A stretch of 64,000 nucleotides of DNA. Origin: Eledone cirrhosa (taxonomy: Eukaryota). Made by a program: the position numbers and the translations under genes. The first letter of the stretch is position 1, and the number at the start of each line of letters is the position of its first letter. Positions 6,702 through 62,756 of the stretch are shown here, one piece after another. Under the pieces are notes generated by a model, which was given only the letters and a program-made list of their open reading frames with translations, ran no database searches and had not been told where the DNA came from. The DNA lies in assembly GCA_964016885.1 (NCBI GenBank), contig OZ024740.1:272800001-272864000 (forward strand). Direction: 5' to 3'.

Positions 6702-6895
6702 AAAGTTTAATATAGAAATAGCTTCTAGAGGACTATAACTTTTTCATTCGAAAGAAATCATCAGGGCTTTCTTGATGAATTCTTTCGAATGAAACAGTTC
6801 TTGTATTGTAGAAGCCATTTCCATATTATACTTTATGTTTAAACTCTACTAATATATTGAGTACCTTACTTACTGTGGATACCCTCGACTGAACA
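6702..6895 (+). mobile_element. TA-embedded fold-back module, family B (twin hammerhead cores)
   Basis: Palindrome 6721-6815 with a TGATGA..GAAA core on each strand; ACTC..TT-GAGT helix 6843-6862; homologous to 32451-32640. Confidence 0.65.
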
Positions 6896-7099
6896 CAGAC
6901 ATACACACAGACAAACACACACACACACACACACACACACACACACACACACACACACACACACACACACACACACACACACACACACACACACACACAT
7001 ATATATATATATGTATAATGAAAAATAAAAGTTACGGGCGAAAGAGGGTAATATCCATTGTCATGGATATTACCTTGCTCTTGTGTTGGCATGTAAACA

Positions 7100-7149
7100 G
7101 AACTGCAGACACTAATGTTTCTGGGCGTTACCCTTCATCAGTAAAGTTC
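7100..7149 (-). ncRNA. Minimal type I hammerhead ribozyme (copy 2)
   Basis: Exact reverse complement of 6509-6558. Confidence 0.8.
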
Positions 7150-8249
7150 ACTGTTCACCTGCTAACTGTCAGAGCTAGTGAAAATATATGATATTTTCTA
7201 AAATATGCAGTGACTGATTGGCCTCATGGATATTAACTTTTATTTTTTATTATATTTAATTGTAACCACACAGCTCGCCATTTCATATATATATATATAT
7301 GTGTATACATAACGGATAAAGGATGATTAACACGGATAAAGCGATATGATAGGGTTTTATTCCAAGCATTAACATATATTTCATCGCTTAATATGCAATT
7401 AATTATGTCTTCATATCGCTATCGTCAACTGTTGATTAGTTATTGAAAAATTCGATTTAAAATACACAGAATAACGCAGTTACTAGGTGAATTAACGAAA
7501 CACTGATCGTTGAACCAGTCATACAACGGTTTTATACCAAATAACATAAACATTAAGATGAAAAATAAAAGAAACTGAGAGAAAATTATATATTTGAGGG
7601 GGTTATAAAAGATTGGAATATCACGTGGAAAAAATATACAACAGAAATGAAAAAATAAAAAATAAAATAAAAATAAAGGTGAAGAATAGAAAATGAAAAA
7701 TACGGAGCATATTACCAGGTTTTAGGTAGGTGTATCTATACACTGTCAGGTTCACTTACAGCTGATTGGTTATATATACACCATTTAAGATAGATTGATT
7801 ACCAATTGGTAGAACTGGTGCTTCTGGCTGGCAAACAATGATGTAAGAATCAAAGTACGCTATGTTATGCGGCCATCCATCTTCGATGTGGTATCCAGTA
7901 GTTGGTACAGGAAAGGAATAAAGTATTTATCAAAGAAAAACAGAAGACCGAAGTGGAAAATATGCTTCAAAATTTTAATTGCGTGAAATCACTAAACATA
8001 TTTCGATGGCCCAGCTCCCTCCTCCAAATATGAGGCATAGTCAGTTGCCCACGGCTTCTACTGGAATCCGCTAGACGGCGTTGGCCGTCAGCCCTTAATT
8101 ATTCATAGCTGGGCTTTCAAAATGTTTACTTATTAAACATACCGTATATATTTAGATTTACAAAATTCCCTTACATGTATGTATGCAGCTATGCCAAAGC
8201 TAAATATTAATATATATATATATATATATATATATATATATATATATAT

Positions 8250-60135: not shown

Positions 60136-60425
60136 CAGTTGTTCTTCAGGTGGGGTGCCGACACCCACAAGGGGTGTGGGATTCAGTTCTTGGTGATGCA
60201 GAGAAAAAGCAAGAACAGAAATCACATTAAAGATACAATATTTAAATTCCCTATTTTCTGTTACTTTCAAAAATGTGTATTTATTAATCACATTCGTTAA
60301 TTAATTAAATAGTAGCAATTGATTTGACCTGAAAATTAAAGTTCTTTTGTTTTATGCCTAGGGGTGCGAGATGGAATTTCAAAATCTCAAGGAGTGCTGT
60401 GATATAAAATGTTTATGTACCACTG
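60136..60425. mobile_element. hAT (Charlie-like) non-autonomous transposon
   Basis: CAGT..ACTG ends; perfect 8-bp TSD TTGTAGAC at 60128-35 and 60426-33. Confidence 0.85.
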
Positions 60426-61281
60426 TTGTAGACACACTTAGGTTATCAATTTGAAAAAAAAAATCCTCTAATTATACATTTAATCTTAAATAAAATTGGA
60501 GATGATGCCCTTTTCCAGAGAAGTAGAAAAATAATAAAATATACAGGAAGTAATTTCACAACCCCCCCCCCCCCAGAACAAAACAAAATAAAACAAAACA
60601 AAACAAAGCATGTGCGTTTTACACAGATAACATGAAGATTTATAGCGCTCCAATTATATTGACTCCTGGGTAATCTTTGAAGAGCGAAGTTTCCAAAACT
60701 GACATCAAGACTTTACTGCATGGGAATGAAGTCTTCAGCTATTTTTTTCTATGGAAATCTAGCTTTCAACAACGACTACACGCATACTCAAACACACACA
60801 CATGTAAGTATAAGCAGAAAATGCAGACAGAAACAAGTTACATACGTTGAACAGACAATTGCAATTCTAACTCGTTAGACACCTTGCTGGCGTGCAATTT
60901 CATGCTTTAAGGAGGTATTGCATTTGCAATACCACTTTCCGCAACATATTGGAGAACTCTCTGTTAGTAAGATGCATGTGAGACGATAACAAAAAGAATG
61001 GACATAAAAATTTATGGCTGTCTTTCGATCAAAAACAGACATAAATACTTACAATTTTTACAATAGACAACAGACTAAACATGTAAATTGTGCATCATAC
61101 CAACAGTGAAAGAAAGAAAAAATCTTTTTGACTTTCGTCATCATGTGTATGGGTAAAGGTGCTTAATAAAAGTTCTGCTATCAACAGAATTTAAGAGATA
61201 AAAGAAAGAGGGATGGGCTGAAGTGGAAGGAAGGAAGCAGATGAGAGGAAGACAATGAGAGAAACAAGATAGATAGATATC

Positions 61282-61685
61282 GTTCTTTATTTGCCACAGG
61301 GGCGTACAAAAATGGGACATTACAAGACGTGACGGCGGGGTTTTTACATAAAAATCATATAATTTTAACATTAATAAATAACAATAAACTATATATAATA
61401 ACATAACAATTGAAATCCCCAATAGGGGGGAACGTTACTGCAGGGTTGTTTTACACCCCGTAGATAGAACAACCCTCAACACCAGGAACACGTTTGTAGG
61501 TGTTCCCGTCTTCCCTCTGTTCATCTTCCTCAACCTACAGATTTATATACAGAGAAGGCCCATTCATTCTGGCCTTTTTCGCCACATTCACCCACCTTTC
61601 AACGGATTTACTGGGGTGTAGCACCTCTCTCTCCACTCTCACCTTCCTTCGGAAGTGGTACTTAAAGAAGGGGACAAGTTGTATT
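61282..61685 (-). mobile_element. Tx1 LINE copy E (ORF2 end + 3' UTR)
   Basis: QLVPFFKYHFRRKVRVEREVLHPSKSVERWVNVAKKARMNGPSLYINL*; 3' end joined to GATAGATAGATA at 61268-79. Confidence 0.9.
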
Positions 61686-62756
61686 ATGCTAGAACACACA
61701 CACACACACACATATATATATATATATATACAGAATAACCACCACAACAACAATATATATATATATATATATATATATATATATATATATATATATATAT
61801 ATATATAAATACAAATATAAATTATCGAGAATCGCATTTCGGCCCACGAAATAACGAAAAACAACCTCCGAGATGTGTGGCAAGTGTCAATAATTCAGAT
61901 GAACCAGAGCTATAACAAACGTTAAAGGCCAAACACACTGAGACGATGGTTAAACAACCATCCGCACAGCCAAAAAAACGATCAAGTAATTCGGGTCAAA
62001 CAAATAAAAAATATATGTGATTGAAAATTTACCCGGACCCCTGGAAGGTTGGTAAAATCCAGCATTTGGGATTCTGCGACTCCTAAATCAAGTACTGTCC
62101 GCTTACATAAATAATGTTAGGCTTCTGGTAAGATGATTGAACAAGGAAGCCGCTTTCTCAACAGGTTTTAGTTCAATGCTAATACAAGGACTGAATATTG
62201 CTGATCCCACGTGGGGATCGGCAAGGGAGGCAACCCCTATATCAGGCGAATGAATTCAGTTGTGTATATTATTGCAAGAATGCAAAACATCACAAATCGA
62301 ATAGAGTTCTCAACAGAGGGGTTAAAATTAACATAAGCTATTCATCATTCAATATAATCAACAATATATATATATATACAAATATAATTTCTGCGAGATC
62401 GAATTTCAGGTGTGGTCGAAAACAAAGCGAAACGCAATATCCGAGTTATGCTAGCAAGCGCTCCATGGACCAAATAAAGACCAGAGCAATAAACATAGGT
62501 TATAAAGGCCAAACAAACTGAGATGGCAGTCAAGAAGCCATCAACCACCTAAGCCGAAAAGACGAGGCAAGCCAAACAGGTCAAACAAAATAATTGAATA
62601 TTTATGTAGTATGGTTGCTAGGATGCGCCCATAGGCGGTATGCCGGTTGAGCACTCTATGTTCCTTCGCAGCAGGGTATGATAATATGGAAAATATGGAA
62701 AACAAAGAGTGATTCTTCGTTTTCCATATTATATATATATGTATATATATATATAT

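Follow-up and report, generated by a model that had tools for sequence, protein, structure and literature searches.

A duplicated bulged RNA hairpin of Hydra-clade Penelope-like elements in Eledone cirrhosa: a likely positioning signal for internal priming

In a 64,000-nt stretch of the Eledone cirrhosa genome (assembly GCA_964016885.1 of about 3.0 Gb, contig OZ024740.1, positions 272,800,001 to 272,864,000; hereafter the window), a short bulged hairpin recurs in many repeat families that lie in (TA)n microsatellites. The motif is a real, apparently undescribed bulged RNA hairpin, and it belongs to Penelope-like elements (PLEs) of the Hydra clade and to some non-coding derivatives of them. Its position, its duplication, its covariation and the pairing of one insertion end of each kind in mirror-image copies were all observed directly. 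We consider it likely that each hairpin is an RNA docking signal which positions the Hydra-clade reverse transcriptase (RT) for internal priming. A preliminary description of the window, made from the letters alone, had taken the motif for a cis-acting RNA element of PLEs that target microsatellites, serving either as an RT binding or template signal or as a second catalytic domain; the first of these agrees with our reading. It had seen only the copy inside the PLE tail and missed that the motif is paired and restricted to the Hydra clade.

The refined consensus is UA(U)-N3-7-R-CUC-(helix of any length)-U-N-GAG-Y, with RCU often next. The invariant part consists of CUC, GAG and the bulged U. 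Of the 17 sites first listed, 14 fit NCUC-helix-UN-GAGN with at least 2 bp of inner helix, at most 1 nt from where they had been placed. The other three do not: 19535 because it is a mutated copy (other copies of its family fit), 32380 because its family has a 1-nt U bulge (locus L142), and 62653 because the copy is decayed. A bulge of the form U(U/C/A) had been proposed; the first U stands, but the second base is free (U 17, C 13, G 9 and A 8 in 47 multi-copy clusters). RCU often follows the motif, as had been claimed, whereas UAYGG was noticed mainly in family A. A covariance model of the hairpin recovered 15 of the 17 sites at E<1, with several of these families being in its training set.

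Chance does not account for the matches. In the window, 16 matches with at least three inner pairs were found, against means of 3.6-4.7 and a maximum of 10 in shuffled sequence (30 shuffles at each of three block sizes). Outside the window, 74 stretches totalling 740 kb gave 137 matches against 53-66 in eight shuffles, and 43 against 0-4 when (TA)4 was required 30-70 nt downstream. With this TA tract required, bulges of 0, 1, 3 and 4 nt yielded 18, 7, 2 and 4 matches compared with 43 for 2 nt; in the same 740 kb the excess over shuffles was specific to a 2-nt bulge with U first. The density of strict matches in a 620-kb sample is about 66 per Mb.

Covariation was assessed on a non-circular set, whose sites were gathered by sequence anchors alone, with no pairing demanded, and then clustered; the resulting 47 multi-copy clusters include chance matches, and kinship among them is ignored. 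Pairing is found for the outer pair in 38 of the 47 clusters and for the first, second and third inner pairs in 35, 37 and 34, as compared with 25 for the outer and 23, 29 and 18 for the inner pairs after column shuffles. The best-fitting register is 2 nt, and the exchanges seen are A-U/G-C, U-A/C-G and G-C/A-U. An outer pair covarying between A-U, G-C, G-U and U-A had been suggested. This holds for A-U/G-C, but the G-U at 36429 was a mis-register: in the modal copy of that family (L234) the outer pair is A-U and lies 5 nt nearer the 5' end, and the inner helix has 5 bp. U-A occurs in family J alone (35960), and the sole other copy found has a mutated GAG. A further alignment, A2, was 94% paired, with double changes in five of eight pairs (0 of 500 shuffles), and is partly circular, its rows having been filtered for two inner pairs. 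In minimum-free-energy ensembles the outer helix forms in 19 of 20 hairpins (probability about 0.5-1.0), while the first inner pair is often ambiguous.

No known RNA family covers the hairpin in Rfam 15, either in the window or at six twin-hairpin loci, as the preliminary description had supposed. For the window, no specific match over the hairpin was present among the 150 of 212 hits listed, which were sub-threshold and mostly microRNA models on microsatellites or palindromes; the six loci gave 33 hits, with only a weak hammerhead match, upstream of the hairpins. Neither the hairpin nor its doubling is described in the parts of the literature searched, that is, outside subscription papers, figures, bioRxiv supplements and Repbase/Dfam.

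The suspected link to PLEs was supported by tracing six families of the window (A, C, D, E, G and K) to Hydra-clade open reading frames (ORFs). For families B, F, H, I, J and M no contiguous Hydra ORF was found, and family I looks non-coding. The family G tail gave no match when used to search the genome, which says little since frequent words are skipped there. According to the relevant passages of Craig et al. (2021, PMC8557442), the Hydra clade is marked by DKT, RW(K/R), CxCX5C and CxxC..E..N..CxH, by hammerheads and by (TA)n targets. In our data the CxCX5C linker before the C-terminal GIY-YIG domain was present in all 12 long ORFs of motif-bearing families and in none of three non-Hydra ORF stretches, just one of which extends to the linker. 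DKG is changed to DKT in 11 of the 12 ORFs (DKA in one), RWR is found in 11, with RWK in family C, and nine of the 12 ORF stretches have both CxxC and CxH around the catalytic E and N, which the other three do not show. CCHH is absent by eye from the family A ORF (family A protein, L201:2457-4604). Pfam and PDB sequence searches with a 716-aa Hydra ORF gave no match; by BLASTP this ORF weakly matched another PLE (E 6e-6).

Hammerheads, predicted by pattern and by eye and some of them with variant cores, lie upstream of the hairpins. The earlier description had placed a hammerhead-like core upstream of the motif in families B, C and E; the position of the hairpin 3' of a hammerhead was supported. 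The family A hammerhead (L201:2180-2275) has a U3-A8 core, resembling a variant in PMC4209133, and a long stem II insert, while the core in family D is CAGA. Both hairpins and the same kind of end site are also kept in some repeats of about 0.5 kb that have no ORF (L122:2100-2750, L164:1500-2200 and L153:2925-3650), which are candidate retrozymes using Hydra enzymes.

Full-length elements have two hairpins between the hammerhead and the AUG, and in tandem full-length copies the second follows the distal end. Among 15 clusters with an ORF start, the best member has two pattern matches upstream of that start in 11; two of the remaining clusters have one clear and one degenerate hairpin, and two are single copies with a degenerate second hairpin only. 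The two hairpins are not alike. Hairpin 2 is usually the shorter. All 11 tabulated examples of it, and further ones, have C-G as the first inner pair, whereas in hairpin 1 this pair is more often U-A. Copy 2 is normally not inserted, and depth drops about 100-fold past it.

From their place between the hammerhead and the AUG, the hairpins could be a second ribozyme, a helper of the hammerhead or a translation element for uncapped RNA. This is most improbable. The distances from hairpin 2 to the AUG (38-109 nt) and from hairpin to hammerhead (about 25-60 nt, by eye) vary, whereas the distance to the insertion ends does not; the hairpins are kept in the ORF-less repeats of L122, L153 and L164; there are four invariant letters per strand; and no Rfam ribozyme matches. 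The second catalytic domain that the preliminary description had entertained finds no test in its favour, the constant part being 4 bp and a bulged U.

A further regularity concerns the insertion ends. Of 275 junctions between element and (TA)n, 247 lie 2-11 nt before hairpin copy 1 or 2 (mode 6-8; ten families), where 45 would be expected for any TA. This count leaves out the reference sequences c1 and c13, whose TA/CA tracts swamp the alignment, and families B, E and G, for which no second hairpin was available. The modal gap between end and hairpin is 5-10 nt in ten families, and the two ends are 67-165 nt apart. The spacings vary while the gap holds, and therefore the ends go with the hairpins rather than with a fixed length. 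The (TA)n reported 30-80 nt downstream of the motif is correctly placed, but it marks the end before the second, usually uninserted hairpin; the fixed relation is that to the end 5-10 nt upstream of the motif. Public genomic contigs, which are independent of our choice of loci (the main run is possibly the assembly's own sample), gave the same picture. For L201 the loose ends at TA are 2286 and 2366 and the hairpins begin at 2292 and 2370; for L384 they are 1357 and 1451, with hairpins from 1360 and 1459. In each of these two families one contig of another organism stops at the same places.

A fixed distance between hairpin and end would suit a nuclease ruler equally well. The hairpins might then direct formation of RNA 3' ends at their base or slightly ahead of it, either through cleavage by a nuclease of the host or of the element or through termination, with the RT priming conventionally there. 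We regard this as unlikely. In the sections of Frangieh et al. (2024, PMC11167929) that concern it, the Poseidon enzyme PAc initiates internally on intact RNA in vitro. Moreover, the pairing of ends is hard to reconcile with two independently processed RNA pools. Among mirror-image insertions unselected by tail, 50 of 52 had one proximal and one distal end and none had two ends of a kind; among tail-selected ones the figures were 40 of 43, with no proximal-proximal and one distal-distal case. If the ends were chosen independently, about half should be alike. Two apparent exceptions to the one-of-each pairing turned out to be a locus edge and an interrupted arm.

The layout of family A, namely (TA)n, an inverted arm with a fixed end, a direct arm, the hairpin, about 50 nt and (TA)n again, is found in most of 30 copies or loci. 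Both of its arms mostly stop 45-62 nt upstream, which takes them beyond the point of hammerhead cleavage (40 of 40 for one arm, 34 of 40 for the other), and most truncated arms stop inside hammerhead stem II; arm lengths are correlated (Spearman 0.61, partly driven by few long pairs). Since the arms extend past the cut site, the template was uncleaved or religated there, which matches the use of unprocessed RNA by PAc as given in PMC11167929. The fixed ends adjoin target DNA and the variable truncated ends lie inside.

Could the signal be read as DNA? The GIY-YIG endonuclease (EN) would then recognise the hairpin in cDNA or in an extruded cruciform and trim or resolve the intermediate a few bases 5' of it. 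Section 6 of Craig et al. (PMC8557442) ascribes the tail to EN-mediated resolution, and the Drosophila virilis EN, as cited in PMC11167929, needed the tail for recognition. Yet G-U pairs are tolerated on the sense strand (8 versus 2), UA(U) microhomology to the target is present at the ends, as priming predicts, and nearly all inserted DNA is without hairpin 2. A signal acting as DNA thus appears rather improbable.

Read in antisense, the helix is placed 5' of the stop, like a telomerase boundary element. The template could be an antisense RNA whose complementary hairpin, acting as a template boundary in the manner of telomerase, would halt the RT 5-8 nt short of it. Arkhipova et al. (2013, PMC3846280) argued for self-priming on an antisense template for head-to-head repeats. 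An antisense template would be very unlikely here: the fixed ends abut target DNA while the variable ends lie inside, as in target-primed starts, PAc uses sense RNA in what PMC11167929 describes, and the G-U bias, weakly, favours sense.

For the docking signal we infer the following course of binding, dimerisation and priming. The RT, probably as a dimer, would bind both hairpins on an uncleaved sense RNA, and its GIY-YIG domains would nick both strands of the (TA)n. Each 3'-OH would pair with the UA(U) that immediately precedes one hairpin, to be extended from there, and the two 5'-truncated cDNAs would join head to head. Such joining would therefore give inverted arms and a one-sided tail. 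The tail would be the stretch between the two start sites, and because it spans between them it holds hairpin 1. PAc offers a parallel in the passages on it in PMC11167929: it is predicted to dimerise and uses unprocessed RNA, and its RT starts at two internal sites that bound a tail, both DNA strands being cut and extended at an AT-rich target, with RNA 3' of the start needed. PAc differs in that its starts lie in an AC-rich stem-loop of the ORF, and no conserved duplicated signal is defined in those passages; the Hydra-clade signal lies in the 5' untranslated region, 3' of each start.

We tentatively go one step further. The pair of non-identical hairpins of about 20 nt could be a bipartite anchor for a dimeric telomerase-like RT, with one subunit priming before each hairpin on opposite strands of the cut (TA)n, so that one RNA writes both insertion ends. 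The pair could also be portable, a signal for mobilisation that was taken over by non-coding hammerhead repeats. We hold this fuller picture to be possible, somewhat short of probable.

Several observations weigh against the docking signal. The strand test (eight G-U against two A-C, p=0.055) favours sense but is weak. One RNA run contained 0.07 of the words and gave no contig that could be placed. Family A accounts for 145 of the 275 ends, some of them in loci that were retrieved with the tail of this family, and about nine of the 15 ORF-start clusters are one related subgroup from a single search. Families C and c2 (L296, L293 and L362) have a third, partly degenerate hairpin nearer the AUG, hairpin 2 of family C is poorly formed, and the bulge of family K is 1 nt. 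The same stretch of RNA is copied into both arms; this calls for strand displacement or for two templates, and the proposed course leaves it unexplained. The motif is absent near the 3' ends of three non-Hydra PLE families (window 8792-10049 and 33357-35595, both minus strand, and a third outside the window), two of which also have two fixed ends; therefore tails do not need this motif in general. PAc RNA, as given in Fig. S1 of Frangieh et al. (PMC11167929), has no CUC/GAG hairpin.

Two of these non-Hydra families have features of their own. At 8792-10049 on the minus strand lies a 5'-truncated copy of a young PLE, also found in L094, with intact ORFs of about 900 aa and a tandem unit of 3127 nt. 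Its fixed ends are 45 nt apart, and an identical 7-nt word stands 2-6 nt after each, possibly an analogous twin signal. The PLE at 33357-35595 on the minus strand (also L095 and L096) is Neptune-like, with frameshifts and, by eye, a CX2-5CxxC linker; at its 3' end a hammerhead is followed by a minimal hairpin of CUC, 4 nt and GAG with a variable loop, and one fixed end was seen. Two seeming counter-examples to the restriction to the Hydra clade, a match upstream of a Neptune-like ORF in L095 and a hairpin downstream of a non-Hydra ORF in L153, were rejected as separate neighbouring insertions.

The hairpin extends to other animals. By eye, it is present in three of six published Hydra consensi in File S7 of PMC8557442: once in the coral Hydra-2_Amil, once in the sea-cucumber Hydra-2_Ajap and twice before the ORF in Hydra-1_Ajap. 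The Crog and Obim consensi there have degenerate forms only and Hydra-1_Amil has none. Six words of the 3' arm occur seven times in that whole supplement; four occurrences are in Hydra termini bearing the hairpin, and three inside Naiad or Chlamys sequence, where no matching 5' arm was seen.

Within the window, the hairpins and associated features are as follows.

36169..36358, model family A insertion: (TA)n, then an inverted arm that ends at the proximal site, a direct arm carrying the hammerhead's 3' half, hairpin 1, a tail reaching the distal site, and again (TA)n
36287..36310, plus strand, hairpin 1 of family A, beginning 8 nt past the proximal end
20804..20827, plus strand, hairpin 1 of a family A subfamily
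29475..29498, plus strand, hairpin 1 of a family A subfamily
36787..36809, plus strand, hairpin 1 of a diverged family A subfamily
32576..32594, plus strand, hairpin 1 of family B, no ORF link in the data
32510..32542, plus strand, predicted type I hammerhead core of family B (CUGAUGA...GAAA...GUC, by pattern), upstream of the hairpin
6843..6862, plus strand, hairpin 1 of an older family B copy
38688..38708, minus strand, hairpin 1 of family C, Hydra ORF next in L293/L296
38740..38799, minus strand, predicted type I hammerhead of family C, stems I-III present by eye
19008..19053, minus strand, hairpin 1 of family D, Hydra ORF in L107, L115 and L120
27679..27724, minus strand, hairpin 1 of family D
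36429..36453, minus strand, mutated hairpin 1 of family E in the family register, 5 nt 5' of that first given; Hydra ORF fragments upstream in L238
62653..62677, minus strand, decayed hairpin 1 of family E
38441..38465, minus strand, hairpin 1 of family G, whose upstream sequence and hammerhead come after Hydra ORFs in L126 and L147
15366..15425, plus strand, hairpin 1 with long insert of family F, no ORF link found
37360..37419, minus strand, hairpin 1 with long insert of family H
37268..37286, minus strand, hairpin 2 of the same family H copy (read-through; new site)
19535..19564, minus strand, mutated hairpin 1 of family I, apparently non-coding; both hairpins in L153
35960..35993, minus strand, atypical hairpin of family J with U-A outer pair; two other copies have a short-arm end about 7 nt upstream of it
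32380..32399, minus strand, degenerate hairpin of family K, whose better copies show a 1-nt U bulge; preceded by a Hydra ORF in L137 and L142
62460..62487, minus strand, hairpin 1 of family M (new site)

A further pattern match at 38980-39007 on the minus strand is not conserved in three other copies and was taken as chance. At 35831-36110 on the minus strand the family J tail is joined directly to the 3' end of the Neptune-like family. The window also holds fragments of a non-LTR (long terminal repeat) retrotransposon with a zf-RVT domain (10888-14057, plus strand; Pfam E 1e-5), another piece of it near 61535-61894 on the minus strand, and, over about 11 kb (39990-51454), (CTA)n, (CAC)n and about 162 copies of a 48-nt satellite.

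PLE RTs are the closest retroelement relatives of telomerase. In the telomerase template boundary element, hepadnavirus epsilon and the R2 3' untranslated region, the RT binds a small stem-loop, often a bulged one, and this determines the start or stop of copying. Those signals act once per RNA, whereas here two copies would set two starts on opposite DNA strands, and the likeness meant is in the way of working. The clade, its hammerheads, the tail, the inverted arms and two-site initiation have been published already; the hairpin and its doubling are apparently new. Our elements share hammerheads, (TA)n targets and tandem and inverted pLTRs with a tail with the Hydra clade of PMC8557442, but its relevant passages have no hairpin 3' of the hammerhead, give a tail of 30-40 bp as opposed to 67-165 nt here, and ascribe it to EN resolution. 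Metazoan non-LTR retrozymes are likewise ORF-less hammerhead-type repeats thought to be mobilised by PLEs (PMC7229834; bioRxiv 10.64898/2026.07.22.740005), with no cis mobilisation signal named in the parts of these two sources that deal with them.

How PLEs choose an internal start, and how mirror arms with a one-sided tail arise, has been an open question since the tail was first described. The duplicated hairpin predicts both ends to within a few bases, which leads to a direct mutational experiment with the 716-aa protein, of which near-identical intact copies exist. If the docking signal is real, it would be a candidate cis signal for the mobilisation of retrozymes. The hairpin also provides a marker for annotating a very abundant class of repeats.

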